This document shows positions 21,790-33,298 of a DNA stretch of 64,000 nt, piece by piece; the first letter of the stretch is position 1; each line of letters begins with the position of its first letter. Made by a program: the position numbers and the translations under genes. The notes below the pieces were generated by a model. It made no database searches and had not been told where the DNA came from. It worked only from the letters and a program-made list of their open reading frames with translations. This DNA comes from Escherichia coli (lineage in GTDB: Bacteria; Pseudomonadota; Gammaproteobacteria; Enterobacterales; Enterobacteriaceae): the NCBI RefSeq assembly GCF_013122565.1, contig NZ_CP053258.1; one strand, written 5' to 3'.

Positions 21790-24216
21790 TTAAACCTTTT
21801 CGATCTGAACAAGATTGCTGTGCGACGGGTTTCCCTTTGCCAGCGGTGAAGGGCGGTGAGAGGTCAGAATATTGATACTGCCGCCGTGATCGACCCGGTC
21901 ACCAAACATATCCGCTTTAAGCCACGCACCTTGCCCGATGGCGGTAACGCCAGGCAGAATACGCGGAGTCACTTTTGCGGCAATCAGCATTTCTCCATTA
22001 TTGTTAAATACCCGCACGGTATCGCCATGACGGATACCGCGTTCCTGAGCATCAATGGGGTTGATCCACACCTCTTGTGGGCAGGCCTGCTGTAACACAT
22101 CAATATTGCCGTAGCTGGAGTGGGTACGTGCTTTGTAGTGGAAGCCCGTTAGCTGCAGTGGATAGGTTTTCCGCAGGGGATCGTCCCAGCCATCAAAACC
22201 TGGGGTATACGCAGGAAGGGGATGAATAATTTCATCTTTTTTCAATTCCCAGGTATCTGCAATCTTCGCCAGTCGTTCAGAATAAATTTCGATTTTCCCC
22301 GAAGGTGTTTTCAACGGGTTTGCCTGTGGATCTTCACGGAATGCGCGGAAAGCGACGTAGTGTTCTTCCGGGCATTTTTTCTTAAAGATCCCGGTCGTTT
22401 TCATCTCCTCGTAGTCGGGCATCTCAGGGTTACGTTCCTTCGTTTTCGCATGGAGATATTTGATCCATTCATGCTGACTGCGACCTTCAGTAAAGGTTTG
22501 ATAAACGTCCGGTCCTAAGCGTTTGGCGACTTCACTCAGCATCCAGTAGATGGGTTTGCGTTCAAATTTTGCTGAGGTTGCGGGTTGGGCGAGGATCACA
22601 TAGCCCATATTCCCTGCAGATTCATGAGAGATAAGGTCTTCTTGCTCTGTTGGCATCAGGTCGGGCAACAGGATATCGCAATACTTAGCCGAGGCCGTCA
22701 TGAAGTGGTCAATGCCGACAATCATCTCGCACTTGCTGTCATCCTGAAGCACCTCATGGGTGTGATTGATGTCGCCATGTTGATTGATCAATGTGTTACT
22801 GGCGTAGCACCATAAAAACTTGATGGGGACATCCAGTTTTTCTTTTCCACGAACACCATCACGGGTCGCGGTCATTTCCGTACCATGGTCGATGGCATCT
22901 GTCCATGTAAAGACGGAAATCTGCGTTTTAACAGGATTGGCTAGCATCGGGAACCATTCTACCCCCAGATCCCAGCTACCTTCGCGTACACCTGAGTTGC
23001 CGCCGTTTATGCCGACGTTACCGGTGAGAACGGAAAGCATGGCAATAGCGCGGGACGTTTGTTCGCCGTTGGAATGTCGTTGTGGCCCCCAACCCTGACA
23101 AATATAAGCAGGTTTTGCTGAACCGATCTCTCGTGCCAACTGGATAATTTTTTCTGCCGGGATGCTGGTGATTTTTGCTGCCCATTCCGGCGTTTTAGCT
23201 ATGCCGTCAGGCCCTTCGCCCAGAATATAGGCTTTATAATGCGCGTTACGTGGTGCGTTGGCGGGCAGCGTTTTTTCATCGTAACCAACACAATATTTGT
23301 CGAGAAATGGCTGATCGACCATGTTTTCAGTAATCAGTACCCAGGCAATCGCACAGGCCAGTGCGCCATCGGTGCCAGGGCGAATGGGCAGCCATTCATC
23401 TTCACGCCCGGCAGCTGTGTCGTTATAACGTGGATCGATGACGATCATGCGTGCGTTTGAACGTTCGCGGGCTTGCTCGACGTAGTAAGTGACACCACCA
23501 CCGCTCATCCGCGTTTCTGCCGGGTTATTTCCGAACATAACGACCAGTTTCGTATTGGCGATATCATCCGGGCTGTTGCCATCATTGGCACCGAACATAT
23601 AACTCATTGCGGCACTGATCTGTGCGGTACTGTAGCTGCCATAGCGACTGAGAAAACCACCGCAAGAGTTCATCAGACGGTACGGGACGTTTGAGTTGGT
23701 GATGTTTCCGCCATCTACACCTGTTCCGTACAGGACATGTACAGCCTCATTGCCGTAATCTTTTAGGATCCGCCGAAGATTATCACTGATGGTATCCAGG
23801 GCTTCGTCCCAACTTATCCGTTCAAATTTACCTTCACCGCGCTTGCCGACGCGCTTCATGGGATATTTCAACCTATCAGGATGATTCATCCGTCGGCGGA
23901 TAGAGCGCCCGCGTAAACACGCACGAACCTGATGATTACCGTAGACGTCGTCACCTGTCGTATCAGACTCCACCCAGTACACGGTGTCATCTTTCACATG
24001 CAAACGTAACAGACAGCGGCTCCCGCAGTTAACGGTACAGGAACTCCAGACCGCTTTCTCTTCTACCGGGGCCTCTGCCGCCCGGACCATTTGGGAAAAT
24101 GGCAGAGTGAAAGCACTGCTTGCCAGCGCAAGACTGCCAAGTGCGGAGGTTTTCATCAGACTTCTACGGCTGATTTCAGCCTTCATGAGCGCCTCTGTGG
24201 TATGGATTTTCATCAT
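21790..24216 (-). CDS. ynfF: Molybdopterin oxidoreductase catalytic subunit (DmsA paralog, putative selenate reductase)
   Basis: 808 aa; Tat signal SRRSLMKTSALGSLALA; molybdopterin-binding domains. Confidence 0.9.
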   Translation of the reverse strand: MMKIHTTEALMKAEISRRSLMKTSALGSLALASSAFTLPFSQMVRAAEAPVEEKAVWSSCTVNCGSRCLLRLHVKDDTVYWVESDTTGDDVYGNHQVRACLRGRSIRRRMNHPDRLKYPMKRVGKRGEGKFERISWDEALDTISDNLRRILKDYGNEAVHVLYGTGVDGGNITNSNVPYRLMNSCGGFLSRYGSYSTAQISAAMSYMFGANDGNSPDDIANTKLVVMFGNNPAETRMSGGGVTYYVEQARERSNARMIVIDPRYNDTAAGREDEWLPIRPGTDGALACAIAWVLITENMVDQPFLDKYCVGYDEKTLPANAPRNAHYKAYILGEGPDGIAKTPEWAAKITSIPAEKIIQLAREIGSAKPAYICQGWGPQRHSNGEQTSRAIAMLSVLTGNVGINGGNSGVREGSWDLGVEWFPMLANPVKTQISVFTWTDAIDHGTEMTATRDGVRGKEKLDVPIKFLWCYASNTLINQHGDINHTHEVLQDDSKCEMIVGIDHFMTASAKYCDILLPDLMPTEQEDLISHESAGNMGYVILAQPATSAKFERKPIYWMLSEVAKRLGPDVYQTFTEGRSQHEWIKYLHAKTKERNPEMPDYEEMKTTGIFKKKCPEEHYVAFRAFREDPQANPLKTPSGKIEIYSERLAKIADTWELKKDEIIHPLPAYTPGFDGWDDPLRKTYPLQLTGFHYKARTHSSYGNIDVLQQACPQEVWINPIDAQERGIRHGDTVRVFNNNGEMLIAAKVTPRILPGVTAIGQGAWLKADMFGDRVDHGGSINILTSHRPSPLAKGNPSHSNLVQIEKV

Positions 24217-24273
24217 TACTCACTTATTGCTTTTCAAACAAAATGTCATGCCAGAATTTATGGTTGTAGTGGG

Positions 24274-26700
24274 TTATATTTTTTCGATCTCGACCAGATT
24301 CGTGTGCTGCGGGTTTCCCTTCGCCAGTGGTGAAGGGCGCAGAGTGGTTAGCGTATTCACACAGCCTCCATGGTCGATTTTATCGCCAGACATATTGGCC
24401 TCATGCCAGGCTCCCTGGCCCATAGCGCTAACCCCAGGGAGAATGCGTGGTGTCACTTTGGCTGGTAGCCGAACTTCGCCACGATGGTTAAACACCCGCA
24501 CCATATCGCCGTTGGCAATCCCACGTTTCTGTGCATCTATAGGGTTGATCCACACCTCCTGACGGCAGGCAGCCTTCAGGACATCAATGTTGCCGTAGGT
24601 CGAGTGAGTACGGGATTTGTAATGGAAACCAAACAGTTGCAGTGGGAAGGTACTACGTTCAGGGGAGTCCCAGCCTTCAAAGGTTGAGGCATAAACCGGC
24701 AGTGGGCTTATCACTTCATCTTTTTCCAGTTCCCAGGTACGGGCAATTTCCGCCAGCTTGCTGGAATAAATTTCAATCTTACCGGAAGGCGTTTTAAGTG
24801 GATTTGCCTCGGGGTCGTCACGAAATGCTTTGTAGGCGACAAAATGACCATTGGGATCTTTACGCTTATAGATACCCATTTTTTTCAGTTCGTCGTAAGA
24901 CGGTAACGCCGGATCTTTGGCAAGCATTTTGGCGTACAGATGTTGTAACCATTGTTCCTGCGTGCGACCTTCTGTGAACTTTTGATAGACGTCAGGTCCA
25001 AGACGTTTCGCGACTTCACTCAGGATCCAGTAAATCGGTTTACGTTCGAATTTTTCGCTGGTGACTGGCTGGAGGAAAATGAGATATCCCATGTTACCGG
25101 CGTAGTCGTTAGGAATAATATCTTCCTGCTCAACGGTCATCAGGTCTGGCAGCAGAATGTCGGCATATTTTGCCGATGAGGTCATAAAGTTTTCGATGAC
25201 CACAATCATTTCGCATTTCGATTCGTCTTGCAGAATTTCATGCGTTTTGTTGATGTCAGAATGCTGATTAACGAGGGTATTTCCCGCGTAGTTCCAGATA
25301 AACTTAATGGGCACATCCAGTTTATCTTTGCCCCGGACACCGTCGCGGAGTGCCGTCATTTGCGGGCCATGATCGATAGCATCCGTCCAGCTGAAGCAGG
25401 AGATTGACGTTTTGACCGGATTATCCAGCACCGGTAGGCGTTCTATCGTAATGGTATAGGTCGATTCACGCGCGCCACTATTTCCGCCGCTGATGCCGAC
25501 ATTGCCCGTCAAAATAGGCAACATAGCAATAGCGCGTGCGGTCAGCTCACCGTTTGCCTGGCGTTGCGGCCCCCAGCCCTGGCAGATATAAGCGGGTTTT
25601 GCTGTGCCAATTTCACGAGCCAGCTTGATGATACGGTCCACCGGGATACCGGTAATTTGCGAAGCCCACTGCGGCGTTTTCGCTGTTTTATCATCACCTT
25701 CACCAAGAATATAGGCTTTATAGTGACCATTTTTTGGTGCATCTGCGGGTAAGGTTTTTTCGTCATAACCGATGCAGTATTTATCGAGAAAAGGTTGATT
25801 AACGAGATTTTCGTTAATCAATACCCAGGCAATACCCGCCACCAGCGCGGCATCGGTGCCCGGGCGAATAGGGAGCCATTCGTCTTCACGACCGGCAGCC
25901 GTATCGGTATATCGCGGATCGATAACAATCATTTTTGCGTTCGATTTTTCGCGCGCTTTTTCAAGAAGATAAGTGATGCCACCGCCGCTCATACGTGTTT
26001 CTGCCGGGTTGTTACCAAACATCACGACCAGCTTGCTGTTTTCGATATCCGTGGTGCTGTTGCCATCATTACTGCCGTAGGTGTAGGGCATGGCACAGGA
26101 AATTTGCGCAGTGCTGTAGGAGCCATACTGGTTGAGTGAACCGCCGTAGCAGTTCATCAGACGTTTGACCGCCGAGGCGGATGGCGATGAGCGGGTCATA
26201 TTGCCGCCAACGATCCCCGAAGAGTACTGAATATATACAGCCTCATTGCCATATTGTTCGACGGTTTTTTTCAGGCTACTGGCGATAGTATCCAGGGCTT
26301 CACCCCAGCTAATCCGTTCGAATTTGCCTTCGCCGCGTTTGCCCACGCGTTTCATTGGATAATTCAAGCGATCGGGATGATTAATACGCCGACGGATGGA
26401 GCGACCGCGCAAACAGGCGCGTACTTGATGATTGCCATACTCATCGCTGCCGGTGTTGTCAGTTTCCACCCAGGTCACTTCATTATCTTTAACATGTAGA
26501 CGAAGTGCACAGCGGCTACCACAGTTGACGGAACAGGCACCCCAGACCACTTTTTCGCTGGCCTGTTGTACCGCTGCCGCTGCACTGCGCAGGGTGAACG
26601 GTAAAGAAAAACCGCCTGCAGCCAGCGCCAGAGAACCTATCGCGGTAGATTTAACGAGTGTTCTGCGGCTGATGCCCACCATTTGTTCATTTTTGGACAT
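24274..26700 (-). CDS. ynfE: Molybdopterin oxidoreductase catalytic subunit (DmsA paralog, putative selenate reductase)
   Basis: 808 aa; Tat signal SRRTLVKSTAIGSLALAA; highly similar to ynfF (tandem paralogs). Confidence 0.9.
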   Translation of the reverse strand: MSKNEQMVGISRRTLVKSTAIGSLALAAGGFSLPFTLRSAAAAVQQASEKVVWGACSVNCGSRCALRLHVKDNEVTWVETDNTGSDEYGNHQVRACLRGRSIRRRINHPDRLNYPMKRVGKRGEGKFERISWGEALDTIASSLKKTVEQYGNEAVYIQYSSGIVGGNMTRSSPSASAVKRLMNCYGGSLNQYGSYSTAQISCAMPYTYGSNDGNSTTDIENSKLVVMFGNNPAETRMSGGGITYLLEKAREKSNAKMIVIDPRYTDTAAGREDEWLPIRPGTDAALVAGIAWVLINENLVNQPFLDKYCIGYDEKTLPADAPKNGHYKAYILGEGDDKTAKTPQWASQITGIPVDRIIKLAREIGTAKPAYICQGWGPQRQANGELTARAIAMLPILTGNVGISGGNSGARESTYTITIERLPVLDNPVKTSISCFSWTDAIDHGPQMTALRDGVRGKDKLDVPIKFIWNYAGNTLVNQHSDINKTHEILQDESKCEMIVVIENFMTSSAKYADILLPDLMTVEQEDIIPNDYAGNMGYLIFLQPVTSEKFERKPIYWILSEVAKRLGPDVYQKFTEGRTQEQWLQHLYAKMLAKDPALPSYDELKKMGIYKRKDPNGHFVAYKAFRDDPEANPLKTPSGKIEIYSSKLAEIARTWELEKDEVISPLPVYASTFEGWDSPERSTFPLQLFGFHYKSRTHSTYGNIDVLKAACRQEVWINPIDAQKRGIANGDMVRVFNHRGEVRLPAKVTPRILPGVSAMGQGAWHEANMSGDKIDHGGCVNTLTTLRPSPLAKGNPQHTNLVEIEKI

Positions 26701-26799
26701 AACTCACTCCCTGTTCTTTATCGTTATATAAAAGTTTATATATTGAATATTTAGCGCGCTAATAATAGAGGGAGTCTACCCATTTTGGGTTAAGAGTTA

Positions 26800-26813
26800 T
26801 TAATCCATATCAA
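26800..26813. promoter_or_regulatory. Candidate FNR box upstream of ynfE
   Basis: TTAAT-CCAT-ATCAA resembles FNR consensus TTGAT-N4-ATCAA; about 100 bp upstream of ynfE start. Confidence 0.4.
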
Positions 26814-26898
26814 TAGAAGGGTATGAGTAATAAGGTGGGATTATGTTGTATGTTCAAATCGCCGGATGTGTCGTATCCGGCGTTCAGTCGATAATGTA

Positions 26899-27204
26899 TT
26901 ACTGTGGTTCGGCAGGCGCGCCATCCTGGGTAGACTGCGCGGGAGCAGAGACGTTACCGCTGGTGGTGCGGGTGTAGAGAATTTTATGCGTATCATTAGC
27001 GCAATGCCCGACGACCTGGGAATCAGGCTGATCAACCTGGTCATTGGGTACAATACTTAACGTGAAGCTGCTTTCGGGTACGCCATTATTGATAATGCGC
27101 TGTGATATATCGCTCTGTATGCGCTCACAGGATCCCGGCGCGGCGAGTACCGCGGGTGAGGCGAGGGCGAGCAGAAGCGTGGCACAGCAGGTTGAGAGTT
27201 TCAT
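26899..27204 (-). CDS. ynfD: Small periplasmic protein YnfD (DUF1161)
   Basis: ORF track 26899..27246; likely start MKLSTCCATLLLALASPAVLA (signal peptide); about 101 aa. Confidence 0.75.
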   Translation of the reverse strand: MKLSTCCATLLLALASPAVLAAPGSCERIQSDISQRIINNGVPESSFTLSIVPNDQVDQPDSQVVGHCANDTHKILYTRTTSGNVSAPAQSTQDGAPAEPQ

Positions 27205-27311
27205 CATAAGCTCCTTACGCGAAGATAACTTCTTTAAGCATAGCATTTAACGTGTAAAGTACTGTATTTGCTACTATGATTGAGAATCATCTCTACTCTC
27301 TGGTGACTGAT

Positions 27312-28022
27312 GTGAAATACAAATTACTGCCATGCTTACTCGCGATATTCCTCACAGGATGTGACCGCACAGAGGTAACACTTTCATTTACCCCTGAGAT
27401 GGCCAGTTTCTCTAATGAATTCGATTTTGATCCGCTGCGTGGTCCGGTAAAAGATTTCACTCAGACATTAATGGATGAGCAAGGTGAAGTGACGAAACGT
27501 GTTTCTGGGACTTTGTCGGAAGAAGGCTGTTTTGATTCACTCGAATTACTGGATCTGGAAAATAATACCGTGGTCGCTCTGGTACTGGACGCCAATTATT
27601 ACCGTGATGCCGAGACGCTGGAGAAGAGAGTACGTTTACAGGGAAAATGCCAGCTAGCAGAATTACCTTCTGCCGGGGTGAGTTGGGAAACCGATGATAA
27701 TGGCTTCGTGATTAAAGCCAGCAGCAAACAGATGCAGATGGAATATCGCTATGATGATCAGGGGTATCCGCTGGGTAAAACCACGAAAAGTAACGACAAA
27801 ACATTATCTGTCAGCGCCACGCCATCAACGGACCCGATCAAAAAATTAGATTATACAGCGGTTACTTTACTGAATAATCAACGGGTTGGTAATGTAAAAC
27901 AGAGCTGTGAATATGACAGTCACGCCAATCCGGTGGACTGTCAGCTAATCATTGTTGATGAAGGAGTAAAACCCGCCGTCGAACGGGTTTACACCATCAA
28001 AAATACTATCGATTATTATTAA
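27312..28022 (+). CDS. ynfC: UPF0257-family lipoprotein
   Basis: ORF track 27276..28022; likely GTG start at 27312 giving VKYKLLPCLLAIFLTGC lipobox; about 236 aa. Confidence 0.75.
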   Translation: MKYKLLPCLLAIFLTGCDRTEVTLSFTPEMASFSNEFDFDPLRGPVKDFTQTLMDEQGEVTKRVSGTLSEEGCFDSLELLDLENNTVVALVLDANYYRDAETLEKRVRLQGKCQLAELPSAGVSWETDDNGFVIKASSKQMQMEYRYDDQGYPLGKTTKSNDKTLSVSATPSTDPIKKLDYTAVTLLNNQRVGNVKQSCEYDSHANPVDCQLIIVDEGVKPAVERVYTIKNTIDYY

Positions 28023-28024
28023 TA

Positions 28025-28585
28025 CTATTGTGCGGTCGGCTTCAGGAGAGTCTGACCCGGTGTTTTGTGCTCTGCCAGATACTGATGCTGGAATATACAC
28101 ATGCGAATGGCATTACGATATTGACCATTAATAAAGAACTCGTGCATCAATTCACCTTCAACCGTAAAGCCAAGCTTGCGGTAAATGTGAATCGCTTTTT
28201 CATTCTCTTTATCGACGATCAGATACAGCTTATAGAGATTGAGAACGGTGAAGCCATAGTCCATTGCTAATTTGGCGGCACGGGTTGCCAGACCTTTCCC
28301 CTGATACTCCGGGGAGATAATTATCTGAAATTCTGCCCGGCGATGAACATGGTTAATTTCCACCAGCTCCACCAGACCGGCTTTTTCGCCGTCACATTCC
28401 ACCACAAAGCGCCGTTCGCTCTGATCGTGAATATGCTTATCATACAGATCAGAGAGTTCAACAAAGGCTTCGTAGGGTTCCTCAAACCAGTAACGCATCA
28501 CACTGGCGTTATTGTCGAGTTGATGTACATAGCGTAAATCTTCACGCTCCAGCGGGCGTAGCTTAACACTGTGGGCGCTTGGCAT
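28025..28585 (-). CDS. speG: Spermidine N1-acetyltransferase SpeG
   Basis: 186 aa GNAT-fold ORF; translation [23 protein letters not shown] matches SpeG. Confidence 0.92.
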
Positions 28586-28619
28586 AACGTGTCCTTACAT
28601 TCCTTAAATCAATAACAGG

Positions 28620-28961
28620 TTAGGGGGTAATAACGCGGCCAGTTCGACGGTCCAGGCAGCGCAAAGTATTTGGCTCCCAGTAGGCATTGATGTTGGCGCT
28701 TTGCTCGCATTTATCGCGGTTATCAAAAGCGGCGTCGGCTTTATCCCACTCTTTTTCAGTGCGTTTATTCACTTTCTGGCGCAGATTGCGCGTGTCATTC
28801 CATTGCTCTTTTTCCATAGCGGCGTGCTGGCGGCTTTGTGCACTGTCGCCAGACTCAATCACCAGTTTGTTAGTTTCGGCATGAACAGTTGTGCTCAATG
28901 CCAGTGCGCAAGGCAGCAGAAAAGCGAGCAGGCCGATTCGTTTGCTGAGAGTGATTTTCAT
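28620..28961 (-). CDS. ynfB: UPF0482-family secreted protein
   Basis: 113 aa with signal peptide. Confidence 0.75.
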
Positions 28962-29095
28962 AATTCATTCCCTGTATGAATGATTAAAGGTGATTCTACA
29001 CCATCCACTGCGAACGCAAAACGTACCAGGAGGGTGTTTATATTGATGATATTATGTCGCCCTATAACTATACATGATGTCAATAAGTGACAAAG

Positions 29096-29422
29096 ATGAT
29101 TAAAACAACGTTATTATTTTTTGCTACTGCGCTGTGTGAAATTATTGGATGCTTTCTGCCCTGGTTGTGGTTAAAACGAAACGCCAGTATCTGGCTGTTG
29201 CTTCCGGCGGGGATTTCACTGGCGCTGTTTGTCTGGTTGTTAACGTTGCATCCTGCGGCGAGTGGGCGTGTTTACGCGGCTTATGGTGGCGTTTATGTCT
29301 GCACGGCGTTGATGTGGCTGCGCGTTGTGGATGGCGTGAAACTAAGTCTTTATGACTGGACGGGGGCGTTGATTGCGCTTTGCGGCATGTTGATTATTGT
29401 TGCGGGCTGGGGGCGCACGTAA
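29096..29422 (+). CDS. ynfA: UPF0060-family small membrane protein
   Basis: ORF track 29087..29422; start [13 protein letters not shown]; 108 aa, four TM. Confidence 0.8.
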
Positions 29423-29627
29423 GGACATAAATCCATTTTATCAATAAGATACGAGGATGTGTCAGCTGACAAAAGGTATTCTATTTCATCTTTTGTCAAC
29501 CATTCACGGCGCAAATATACGCCTTTTTTTGTGATCACTCCGGCTTTTTTCGATCTTCATACTTGTATGGTAGTAGCTCAGTTGCGTAGATTTCATGCAT
29601 CACGACAAGCGATGCAAGGAATCGAAC

Positions 29628-30842
29628 ATGAAGATCGTAAAGGCTGAAGTTTTTGTTACCTGTCCGGGGCGTAATTTCGTCACATTAAAAATCACCACTG
29701 AGGACGGTATTACGGGCCTTGGGGATGCCACCCTCAATGGACGTGAGCTTTCCGTGGCCTCTTATTTGCAGGATCACCTTTGTCCGCAGCTTATTGGTCG
29801 CGATGCGCACCGTATCGAAGATATCTGGCAGTTTTTCTATAAAGGTGCTTACTGGCGTCGCGGTCCGGTTACGATGTCGGCCATTTCAGCGGTTGATATG
29901 GCGCTGTGGGATATTAAAGCCAAAGCTGCCAACATGCCGCTTTACCAGTTACTCGGCGGCGCGTCTCGTGAAGGGGTGATGGTTTATTGCCATACCACCG
30001 GTCACAGTATTGATGAAGCTCTGGATGATTATGCCCGTCATCAGGAGCTGGGATTCAAAGCCATCCGCGTGCAGTGCGGAATCCCTGGTATGAAAACCAC
30101 CTACGGCATGTCGAAAGGTAAAGGTCTGGCTTATGAACCCGCAACCAAAGGACAGTGGCCGGAAGAGCAGCTGTGGTCGACGGAGAAATACCTCGATTTC
30201 ATGCCGAAATTGTTTGACGCGGTACGTAACAAGTTTGGTTTTAATGAACATTTGCTGCATGACATGCACCATCGCTTAACGCCTATTGAAGCGGCGCGCT
30301 TTGGTAAAAGCATTGAAGATTATCGCATGTTCTGGATGGAAGACCCGACGCCTGCGGAAAACCAGGAATGCTTCCGTCTCATTCGCCAACATACCGTCAC
30401 ACCCATCGCAGTGGGTGAAGTCTTCAACAGCATCTGGGACTGCAAACAACTGATTGAAGAGCAACTCATCGATTATATCCGCACCACGCTGACCCATGCA
30501 GGCGGAATTACCGGTATGCGCCGGATTGCCGATTTTGCTTCGTTGTATCAGGTACGTACTGGCTCACACGGTCCTTCCGATTTGTCACCAGTCTGCATGG
30601 CTGCGGCGTTGCACTTTGATCTGTGGGTCCCCAATTTCGGTGTCCAGGAATACATGGGTTATTCCGAACAAATGCTCGAAGTCTTCCCGCACAACTGGAC
30701 TTTCGATAACGGCTATATGCATCCGGGAGACAAACCGGGTCTTGGTATCGAATTCGATGAAAAGCTGGCGGCGAAATATCCCTATGAACCTGCTTATCTA
30801 CCAGTCGCACGTCTGGAAGATGGCACGCTGTGGAACTGGTAA
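29628..30842 (+). CDS. rspA: Starvation-sensing protein RspA (enolase superfamily, mannonate dehydratase-like)
   Basis: ORF track 29595..30842; canonical start [22 protein letters not shown] (ATG 29628); 404 aa. Confidence 0.9.
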
Positions 30843-30853
30843 GGAGTAAGATT

Positions 30854-31873
30854 ATGAAAAGCATATTAATTGAAAAACCGAATCAACTGGCGATTGTCGA
30901 ACGTGAAATACCCACCCCGTCAGCGGGTGAAGTACGAGTAAAAGTGAAACTTGCCGGAATTTGTGGTTCAGATAGCCATATTTACCGTGGGCATAATCCT
31001 TTTGCGAAATATCCGCGCGTCATTGGTCATGAATTCTTTGGCGTCATTGATGCGGTGGGTGAAGGTGTGGAAAGCGCCAGAGTCGGTGAACGTGTTGCTG
31101 TCGATCCGGTGGTCAGCTGTGGTCATTGCTATCCGTGCTCTATAGGTAAACCGAACGTTTGTACGACACTGGCTGTATTAGGTGTGCACGCTGACGGTGG
31201 TTTCAGTGAATATGCCGTGGTTCCGGCAAAAAATGCGTGGAAAATTCCTGAAGCAGTGGCCGATCAATATGCGGTAATGATCGAACCTTTTACCATTGCG
31301 GCTAACGTAACCGGACATGGTCAACCGACTGAAAATGATACCGTTCTGGTTTATGGTGCCGGTCCAATCGGCCTGACGATCGTTCAGGTATTAAAAGGCG
31401 TCTATAACGTTAAAAATGTGATTGTTGCCGATCGCATTGATGAACGACTGGAAAAAGCGAAAGAGAGCGGGGCAGACTGGGCGATTAATAACAGCCAGAC
31501 ACCGCTTGGCGAGATTTTCGCTGCAAAAGGCATCAAGCCGACATTAATTATCGATGCGGCTTGTCATCCTTCTATCCTGAAAGAGGCCGTAACGCTGGCT
31601 TCTCCAGCGGCACGTATTGTATTGATGGGCTTCTCCAGTGAACCGTCTGAAGTGATTCAGCAAGGAATTACCGGAAAAGAACTCTCTATTTTTTCTTCAC
31701 GCTTAAATGCAAATAAATTCCCGGTCGTTATCGACTGGTTAAGTAAAGGGTTAATTAAACCAGAAAAATTAATTACCCATACGTTTGATTTCCAGCATGT
31801 TGCTGATGCCATTAGTTTATTTGAACAGGATCAAAAACATTGCTGCAAAGTCTTACTCACTTTTTCTGAATAA
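30854..31873 (+). CDS. rspB: Zn-dependent alcohol dehydrogenase-family protein RspB
   Basis: ORF track 30830..31873; start MKSILIEKPN; GICGSDSH zinc motif; 339 aa. Confidence 0.9.
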   Translation: MKSILIEKPNQLAIVEREIPTPSAGEVRVKVKLAGICGSDSHIYRGHNPFAKYPRVIGHEFFGVIDAVGEGVESARVGERVAVDPVVSCGHCYPCSIGKPNVCTTLAVLGVHADGGFSEYAVVPAKNAWKIPEAVADQYAVMIEPFTIAANVTGHGQPTENDTVLVYGAGPIGLTIVQVLKGVYNVKNVIVADRIDERLEKAKESGADWAINNSQTPLGEIFAAKGIKPTLIIDAACHPSILKEAVTLASPAARIVLMGFSSEPSEVIQQGITGKELSIFSSRLNANKFPVVIDWLSKGLIKPEKLITHTFDFQHVADAISLFEQDQKHCCKVLLTFSE

Positions 31874-31930
31874 TACCAATAACGGCGAGTAAGTAGTACG
31901 CATCTTACCTCTTTTTTAGAGATAACCATT

Positions 31931-33298
31931 ATGACAATAGAAAAACACGAAAGAAGCACTAAGGATTTGGTGAAAGCAGCAGTATCGGGATGGCTGGGCA
32001 CTGCGCTTGAATTTATGGATTTCCAGTTATATTCGCTCGGCGCAGCGTTAGTGTTTCATGAAATATTTTTTCCTGAATCATCAACGGCAATGGCGTTAAT
32101 TCTGGCAATGGGAACCTACGGTGCAGGTTATGTGGCGCGTATTGTCGGAGCATTTATTTTCGGCAAAATGGGCGACAGAATAGGGCGTAAAAAAGTGCTC
32201 TTTATTACCATCACCATGATGGGGATCTGTACCACCTTAATTGGTGTGTTACCGACCTATGCACAGATTGGTGTTTTTGCACCCATCTTGCTGGTGACGC
32301 TGCGTATTATTCAGGGGTTGGGTGCAGGTGCGGAAATTTCCGGTGCCGGTACGATGCTGGCGGAATATGCACCAAAAGGTAAGCGCGGAATTATCTCCTC
32401 ATTTGTGGCTATGGGAACTAACTGCGGAACCTTGAGCGCAACGGCAATCTGGGCCTTTATGTTCTTCATTCTCAGTAAAGAGGAACTGCTGGCGTGGGGA
32501 TGGCGTATACCGTTCCTGGCGAGTGTTGTCGTGATGGTCTTTGCTATCTGGTTGCGTATGAATCTGAAAGAAAGCCCGGTCTTTGAGAAGGTTAACGACA
32601 GCAACCAACCGACAGCAAAACCTGCACCTGCTGGTAGCATGTTCCAGAGCAAATCCTTCTGGCTGGCAACAGGGCTGCGTTTTGGTCAGGCAGGTAACTC
32701 CGGATTAATTCAGACTTTCCTTGCAGGCTATTTAGTGCAGACGTTATTGTTTAACAAAGCAATTCCAACAGATGCATTGATGATCAGTTCGATTCTCGGC
32801 TTTATGACCATTCCGTTCCTTGGTTGGTTATCCGATAAAATTGGTCGCCGGATCCCGTATATTATTATGAATACCTCCGCGATTGTGCTGGCATGGCCAA
32901 TGCTTTCTATCATCGTAGATAAAAGCTATGCCCCGAGCACCATTATGGTTGCACTGATTGTGATTCATAACTGTGCGGTGCTGGGATTATTTGCTCTGGA
33001 AAACATTACCATGGCAGAAATGTTCGGCTGTAAAAACCGCTTTACCCGGATGGCTATTTCTAAAGAAATTGGTGGTCTTATCGCTTCCGGTTTTGGTCCT
33101 ATCCTGGCGGGTATTTTCTGCACCATGACGGAATCCTGGTATCCGATCGCCATTATGATCATGGCATATTCAGTGATTGGTTTAATCTCTGCGCTGAAAA
33201 TGCCAGAAGTGAAAGACCGTGATTTAAGTGCGCTGGAAGACGCCGCGGAAGTTCAACCGCGTGTTGTAAGAGCTGCGCAACCTTCCAGAAGTCTGTAA
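31931..33298 (+). CDS. ydfJ: MFS transporter YdfJ (apparently intact)
   Basis: 455 aa 12-TM ORF beginning 57 bp after rspB stop. Confidence 0.8.
   Translation: MTIEKHERSTKDLVKAAVSGWLGTALEFMDFQLYSLGAALVFHEIFFPESSTAMALILAMGTYGAGYVARIVGAFIFGKMGDRIGRKKVLFITITMMGICTTLIGVLPTYAQIGVFAPILLVTLRIIQGLGAGAEISGAGTMLAEYAPKGKRGIISSFVAMGTNCGTLSATAIWAFMFFILSKEELLAWGWRIPFLASVVVMVFAIWLRMNLKESPVFEKVNDSNQPTAKPAPAGSMFQSKSFWLATGLRFGQAGNSGLIQTFLAGYLVQTLLFNKAIPTDALMISSILGFMTIPFLGWLSDKIGRRIPYIIMNTSAIVLAWPMLSIIVDKSYAPSTIMVALIVIHNCAVLGLFALENITMAEMFGCKNRFTRMAISKEIGGLIASGFGPILAGIFCTMTESWYPIAIMIMAYSVIGLISALKMPEVKDRDLSALEDAAEVQPRVVRAAQPSRSL

Follow-up and report, generated by a model that had tools for sequence, protein, structure and literature searches.

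In Escherichia coli K-12, the ynfEFGH-dmsD operon is one that FNR activates directly (Category 1), with a chromatin immunoprecipitation sequencing (ChIP-seq) peak and one site centred at -40.5 from a known transcription start (Myers et al. 2013, PLoS Genet 9:e1003565, PMC3688515). Both FNR activation and NarL repression of ynfE are attributed to Xu, Busby and Browning 2009 (J Bacteriol 191:3172), as cited in PMC6561318, and in reporter strains the ynfE promoter was on only anaerobically without nitrate (PMC6561318). As for the ends of transcripts, Rho-dependent 3' ends have been described as stable stem-loops without U-rich tails, with Rho-utilisation (rut) sites directly downstream (Dar and Sorek 2018, NAR 46:6797). 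Here, the corresponding region was analyzed in a 64-kb stretch of DNA (hereafter the window, with positions counted from its first letter). The DNA comes from an E. coli-group genome. On its minus strand, positions 26766-26901 make up the ynfD-ynfE intergenic region and contain two separate elements: the FNR site of the ynfE promoter and a GC-rich hairpin shortly after the end of ynfD. Taken as a whole, the locus is probably best explained by an FNR- and NarL-controlled ynfE promoter together with a hairpin that would form a Rho-linked 3' end of the ynfD messenger.

FNR and NarL-type sites at the ynfE promoter

The first-pass annotation of the window had placed an FNR-like site at 26800-26813, about 100 bp upstream of ynfE, and had proposed anaerobic induction through it. 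Exactly this position reads TTAATCCATATCAA on the plus strand and TTGATATGGATTAA on the coding (minus) strand, with one mismatch to TTGAT-N4-ATCAA (9 of the 10 specified bases), and its centre (26806.5) lies 106.5 nucleotides (nt) upstream of the ynfE ATG (26700). The proposed induction is borne out by the published K-12 data, where the identical 14-mer lies beneath the ChIP-seq peak of FNR, and the site assigned to ynfE in the supplementary table is TTGATATGGATTAA, with a position weight matrix score of 13.01. In the same study, the sigma70 ChIP signal at ynfE was 27 aerobically and 709 anaerobically, and the ratio of expression in the fnr mutant to that in the wild type was 0.027 for ynfE, ynfF and ynfG, a drop of about 37-fold for ynfE (PMC3688515).

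The site is also conserved among relatives. A scan for YnfD, with one genome per species, gave 80 loci; a set of 56 loci (55 plus the window's own) comprised those in which a ynfE orthologue with 75% identity or more comes after ynfD, and a phylogenetic footprint was obtained from a 43-species Enterobacteriaceae alignment of the whole ynfD-ynfE intergenic region. In this alignment the columns TTGA (26813-26810) and TAA (26802-26800), which belong to the two FNR half-sites, were invariant, and the only other invariant columns were two G positions of the Shine-Dalgarno sequence and the stop and start codons. In most related loci the FNR centre was found 100.5-107.5 nt from the ATG. Sequence, published K-12 data and conservation all agree, and the FNR element is the known, already published class II site of the ynfE promoter (ynfEp).

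Transfer of the K-12 offset (26806.5 minus 40.5) would place the ynfE transcription start at an A at 26766 (minus strand), with a 5' untranslated region (UTR) of 66 nt. The centre of a class II site lies some 41.5 (± 4) nt upstream of the start, a range that includes the -40.5 published for K-12, by which the class is assigned here. From its spacing to the implied start, the hexamer TAGACT (26773-26778, minus strand; -12 to -7), which reads TAAACT in Citrobacter and Salmonella, is the probable -10 element. No -35 match to it was found, and a scan of 26600-27000 for consensus sigma70 promoters and intrinsic terminators returned nothing; the empty promoter scan and the missing -35 fit an activator-dependent class II promoter.

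Overlapping the start of the -10 hexamer is a NarL-type 7-2-7 sequence, TAACCCA-AA-ATGGGTA (26777-26792, minus strand; -26 to -11). It matches the reference high-affinity NarL 7-2-7 site, TACCCCTAAAGGGGTA (PMC4549865), at 13 of 16 positions, and is the sole match with at most three mismatches in the window (0.25 expected). In the 43-species alignment T26792 and GTA at 26779-26777, which frame the 7-2-7, were nearly invariant, as was the Shine-Dalgarno block GGAGTGAG. The NarL heptamer consensus was reportedly given by Darwin et al. 1997 as TACYYMT, and relative to TACYYMT-NN-AKRRGTA the window sequence has two mismatches; matches with at most two mismatches to this pattern were present in 44 of the 56 loci, with an offset from the FNR site that was fixed in nearly all of them. 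Position 26777-26792 is thus a candidate nitrate-repression operator, in line with the published nitrate repression.

These elements suggest a simple scheme. An FNR dimer, active only without oxygen, binds TTGATATGGATTAA at -40.5, where it overlaps the missing -35, and recruits RNA polymerase to the weak -10 TAGACT, giving class II activation and anaerobic induction; for K-12, with its identical site, published work demonstrates this FNR part. Phosphorylated NarL on the -26 to -11 site would probably block polymerase access at the -10 and spacer, giving repression by nitrate.

Directly upstream of the FNR site, TACCCTT (26815-26821, minus strand) matches the NarL heptamer at six of seven positions, and a yCCCTT block is kept at that place in many genera. 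It could be an extra NarL/NarP half-site or a contact region for the C-terminal domain of the polymerase alpha subunit.

The hairpin downstream of ynfD

A palindrome with a 7-nt spacer had also been noted just after the ynfD stop, at about 26862-26884. The palindrome, its spacer and its perfect arms were found there, whereas its position had to be moved down by 2 nt, to 26860-26882 (minus strand). The 5' arm CGCCGGAT (26882-26875) and the 3' arm ATCCGGCG (26867-26860), of 8 nt each, enclose the loop ACGACAC (26874-26868), making 23 nt in total; six of the eight pairs are G-C, and the stem begins 16 nt past the stop codon. Folding of the coding-strand RNA gave -15.1 kcal/mol (z = -5.0), and none of 200 shuffled sequences was as stable. 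The core GCCGGAT-N(3-30)-ATCCGGC occurred once in the window (0.00 expected). Five sampled E. coli whose locus is intact had the same two arms, and their loops read ACGACAC, ATGACAA, ATGACAC or GCGACAC. In the 3' arm, the deletion strain SC434 and Escherichia sp. MOD1 differed by one or two substitutions. Compared with Rfam, the stretch 26300-27400 gave only a sub-threshold match to a viral BTE (E = 0.22), which was dismissed.

In the soil isolate E. coli SC434 (locus L089, 391-520), a natural deletion of ynfE-ynfG has fused the post-hairpin sequence to the 3' part of ynfH, with the breakpoint directly after the 3' arm of the hairpin.

The hairpin is not a canonical intrinsic terminator: the GC-rich stem is present and the U-tract is absent. 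Its tail, AUUUGAACAU, has three U's in eight bases, starting one base past the stem (AUUU), and no intrinsic terminator was detected on either strand of 26600-27000 when at least five T's in eight were required.

Its origin most likely lies in a repetitive extragenic palindromic (REP) element, as judged by sequence likeness. No canonical REP tail (CTTATCMGGCCTAC, up to two mismatches) was present anywhere in the window, so the comparison was made with the bacterial interspersed mosaic element (BIME) in the fre-fadA spacer of K-12 (...GTAGGCCGGATAAGGCGTTTACGCCGCATCCGGCAATT). The loop and 3' arm of the window hairpin, TACGACACATCCGGCGATT, agreed with the REP sequence TACGCCGCATCCGGCAATT at 16 of 19 positions (local score z = 5.1; reached by 0 of 500 shuffles), and the left arm GCCGGAT also matched once a 9-nt internal gap was allowed, while the head reads GAAC and not GTAG. 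Moreover, E. albertii, Escherichia sp. E1V33 and E. whittamii carry at the hairpin position an insert that is 50 nt longer and corresponds to a full BIME (two inverted REPs), colinear with the fre-fadA BIME; the E1V33 BIME was found at a median of five places per E. coli genome. These results suggest that the ynfD hairpin is most likely a truncated REP that lost about nine internal bases.

Hairpins also stand at the same place outside Escherichia. In 28 of the 56 loci, the stretch from the ynfD stop to the FNR site contains a perfect GC-rich hairpin of 7 bp or longer, and several more loci have imperfect ones; only 2 of the 28 had five or more T's in the 8-nt tail. The hairpins are unrelated between genera, with CCCTCCG/CGGAGGG in Citrobacter and Salmonella, TCCCCC/GGGGGA in Leclercia and Kosakonia, and others in Buttiauxella and Cedecea.

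On the minus strand, the hairpin is separated from the FNR site by a C-rich, G-poor tract (26814-26859) with 14 C and 1 G in 46 nt, a candidate Rho-utilisation region. An excess of C over G of at least 13 occurred in only 0.5% of 46-nt windows on the minus strand, and one G or fewer in 0.01%; from this composition, we infer that the tract may act as a rut site. Regarding the expression of ynfD, a genomic SELEX (systematic evolution of ligands by exponential enrichment) peak of sigmaS-RNA polymerase (intensity 32.3) lies in the divergent ynfC/ynfD spacer (about 27205-27275 in the window; PMC5493296). It suggests stationary-phase transcription of ynfD and/or ynfC, so that ynfD may be active at times when ynfE ought to be off, a situation in which insulation would be useful. 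The 37-fold fnr dependence of ynfE implies that little read-through reaches ynfE under those conditions, which low ynfD transcription would explain equally well.

A 3'-end role is favoured, indirectly, by the likely descent of the hairpin from a REP, by the C-rich, G-poor tract that follows it and by the unrelated hairpins that occupy this place in other genera: on balance, we lean towards the hairpin being a structure that forms or stabilises the 3' end of ynfD mRNA. Among such roles, a Rho-dependent protective stem-loop appears more likely than a weak intrinsic terminator. The hairpin would probably not halt polymerase by itself, having no U-tract, and would serve instead as a stable 3' structure; Rho would load on the tract downstream and terminate transcription, and exonucleases would trim the messenger back to the hairpin. 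The net effect would be to keep ynfD transcription, possibly driven by sigmaS, out of the oxygen- and nitrate-controlled ynfE operon. The insulation of ynfE from ynfD read-through proposed in the first-pass annotation is, on these sequence features, plausible.

Several observations weigh against this combined reading of promoter and hairpin. All experimental data come from K-12 and not from the window strain, with the FNR 14-mer and the NarL 16-mer identical in both, and the assignment of nitrate repression to 26777-26792 is our own. The hairpin lacks the GTAG head of REPs, and in each of 5,366 E. coli genomes a 46-nt query of the hairpin region matched exactly one, un-annotated place, the short query making this a weak test of repetition. 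No hairpin was found at the ynfD-ynfE loci of Enterobacter, Lelliottia and Klebsiella, so it is not essential to the promoter. Covariation in the Citrobacter/Salmonella hairpin was weak: only the pair 4-23 showed all of AU, GC and GU, and 45 of 500 shuffles reached the score (the hairpins of Silvania and Leclercia, whose alignment was out of register, were left out of the count). The G-poverty of the tract could reflect just AT-rich promoter-upstream DNA. Finally, no mapped 3' end of ynfD was present in the searchable Term-seq and SMRT-Cappable-seq supplements, which may reflect low expression or incomplete tables.

Alternative explanations

The hairpin might be a true but weak Rho-independent terminator, at which polymerase would pause on AUUU and be released by the 8-bp stem, perhaps with the aid of NusA or NusG. 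Its stable stem and the three U's one base beyond it fit this view, and canonical versions stand at the same place in a few relatives (Buttiauxella warmboldiae, AAACGGGG...CCCCGTTTTTGC; Superficieibacter, ...AACGCCACCTTTTTTTT). Nevertheless, the tail with three T's in eight, the empty terminator scan, the lack of a T-run in 26 of the 28 perfect hairpins of relatives and the absence of a mapped 3' end from the searchable supplements make it unlikely.

Doubtful as well is the idea that the hairpin is a decaying REP/BIME remnant of no selected function, with the aerobic silence of ynfE resulting from weak ynfD transcription and the need for FNR. The REP similarity, the full BIMEs that sister species carry at this locus, the absence of a hairpin from Enterobacter and Klebsiella and the weak covariation are all consistent with decay. 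Nonetheless, among the sampled E. coli whose locus is intact the arms stayed the same as the loop changed, and unrelated hairpins recur at this position in Citrobacter, Salmonella, Leclercia, Kosakonia, Buttiauxella and Cedecea, a pattern that is difficult to account for unless there is some selection for a 3' structure.

Since its 8-bp arms form a perfect inverted repeat and it lies upstream of a regulated promoter (-94 to -116 of the ynfE promoter), the palindrome could also be a DNA operator for a dimeric regulator. Outside E. coli, however, the sequence is not kept, being replaced by unrelated hairpins, a BIME or nothing, unlike the FNR and NarL sites, and the REP ancestry and the 7-nt loop that varies within E. 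coli further argue against an operator, which we regard as very improbable.

Least credible of all is a chance match to the FNR motif, with anaerobic induction of ynfE acting via another site: one-mismatch matches were indeed no more frequent in the window than in shuffled sequence (5 against 3.1 expected; 22 of 100 shuffles reached 5), so the reality of the site rests on position, conservation and the published ChIP data and not on motif count, but the identical K-12 sequence has a ChIP-seq peak, a weight-matrix assignment, the -40.5 position and the 37-fold fnr dependence, its half-sites are invariant in 43 species, and the E. coli intergenic region contains no further FNR match with two or fewer mismatches.

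Other features of the ynfE 5' UTR

A palindrome resembling a ModE operator, CGTTATAT-N8-ATATATTG (26722-26745, +22 to +45; full sequence CGTTATATAAAAGTTTATATATTG), lies in the ynfE 5' UTR. The search pattern was modelled on CGTTATATTGTCGCCTACATAACG, which occurs in the upstream region of K-12 modA, has the same half-sites and 8-nt spacing, and which we take to be the ModE operator. The window palindrome has one mismatch to CGNTATAT-N8-ATATANCG (0.00 such matches expected in the window). Every one of the 18 loci from Escherichia, Citrobacter and Salmonella has the 24-mer with up to three mismatches, and it always ends 20-21 nt before the ATG; the other 38 loci lack it. A link between ModE and ynfE was not found in the literature searched, ModE-site surveys and genomic SELEX work being outside its reach. 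If real, such an operator would add molybdate control to a molybdoenzyme operon. We offer only tentatively the joint proposal that selection repeatedly sets U-less stem-loops, from any sequence, 7-46 nt upstream of the FNR site, insulating ynfE via Rho, and that a ModE operator occupies +22 to +45.

Right after the inferred start, a second palindrome, TTAGCG/CGCTAA, spans 26751-26762 (+5 to +16). ATTAGC followed by a short hairpin is kept in most genera, e.g. ATCATTAGCCCGGTTGTAATCACGGG in Enterobacter, and may serve as a 5' stabilising hairpin or as a further operator.

In Enterobacter genomosp. O (locus L060, about 2380-2505), an insertion of about 125 nt separates the ynfE promoter from the Shine-Dalgarno sequence and shifts the FNR centre to 227.5 nt from the ATG, against about 102. 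It contains GAATCCCCAGGAGCGTACATAAGTACGTGACTGGGGTGAGTG, which resembles an ERIC/IRU (enterobacterial repetitive intergenic consensus/intergenic repeat unit) repeat.

Genes and genomic context

The ynfD coding sequence (26899-27204, minus strand; stop TAA at 26901-26899) encodes a DUF1161 protein of 101 amino acids, as identified by translation and by the annotation of matching E. coli genomes. The ynfE open reading frame (24274-26700, minus strand; 808 amino acids), with its ATG at 26700-26698 and the Shine-Dalgarno sequence GGGAG at 26711-26707, is annotated in those genomes as a selenate/tellurate reductase subunit. Two short open reading frames on the plus strand (26843-26977 and 26866-27060) are antisense to ynfD. 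The ynfD-ynfE region is colinear with that of K-12 MG1655, and a 401-nt query found matches in 5,382 of the 5,426 complete E. coli genomes, most of them 95-99% identical to it, with ynfD and ynfE annotated in all. Over 10 kb (22000-32000), identity to any of the 5,426 complete RefSeq E. coli genomes was at most 98.8%, and from this the window strain is judged to be absent from that set and to belong to an Escherichia/Shigella-group lineage that the set does not include. Regulation by RyhB was considered and set aside, its target being ynfF and not the ynfD-ynfE intergenic region.

Significance

For K-12, how FNR and NarL control ynfEFGH-dmsD, including the FNR site, is already known at textbook level, and no new kind of element is involved. 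Beyond correct annotation the importance of the locus is small. What is gained is a phylogenetic footprint that puts the FNR half-sites and the NarL 7-2-7 as the conserved promoter core across Enterobacteriaceae, an un-annotated ynfD hairpin that is probably a truncated REP serving as a 3'-end structure, and a lead that ModE may act in the ynfE 5' UTR. The ynfE promoter is already in use as a gut biosensor part, and whenever the promoter fragment is reused, the upstream hairpin should not be taken for a dependable intrinsic terminator.

Comparison with known systems

With canonical Rho-independent terminators, the ynfD hairpin shares a GC-rich stem-loop soon after a stop codon, and it differs in having no U-tract. 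Its likeness to the protective stem-loops of Rho-dependent transcripts, a stable U-less stem-loop and a C-rich, G-poor tract, is one of anatomy only. With REP/BIME elements it has in common the outer stem GCCGGAT...ATCCGGC, the extragenic place after a stop codon and an orthologous BIME in other Escherichia, whereas it measures 23 nt against about 35 nt for a REP (an apparent 9-nt internal deletion), lacks the GTAG/CTAC head and is a single unit for which no repetition in the genome was detected.

On the promoter side, class II promoters of the FNR/CRP family (dmsA, narG, pykA and focA, with the site near -41.5) provide the general model, and the window shares with them a one-mismatch inverted repeat at -40.5, the absence of a -35 and a weak -10; its right half-site is ATTAA instead of ATCAA, a variant kept across genera. 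The paralogous dmsABC operon follows the same regulatory logic. The orthologous K-12 ynfEp is identical in its FNR 14-mer, NarL-like 16-mer, -10 hexamer, Shine-Dalgarno sequence and spacing, and the window departs from it by one substitution in the interval from the FNR site to the NarL site, by another just past the start and by two within the loop of the hairpin.

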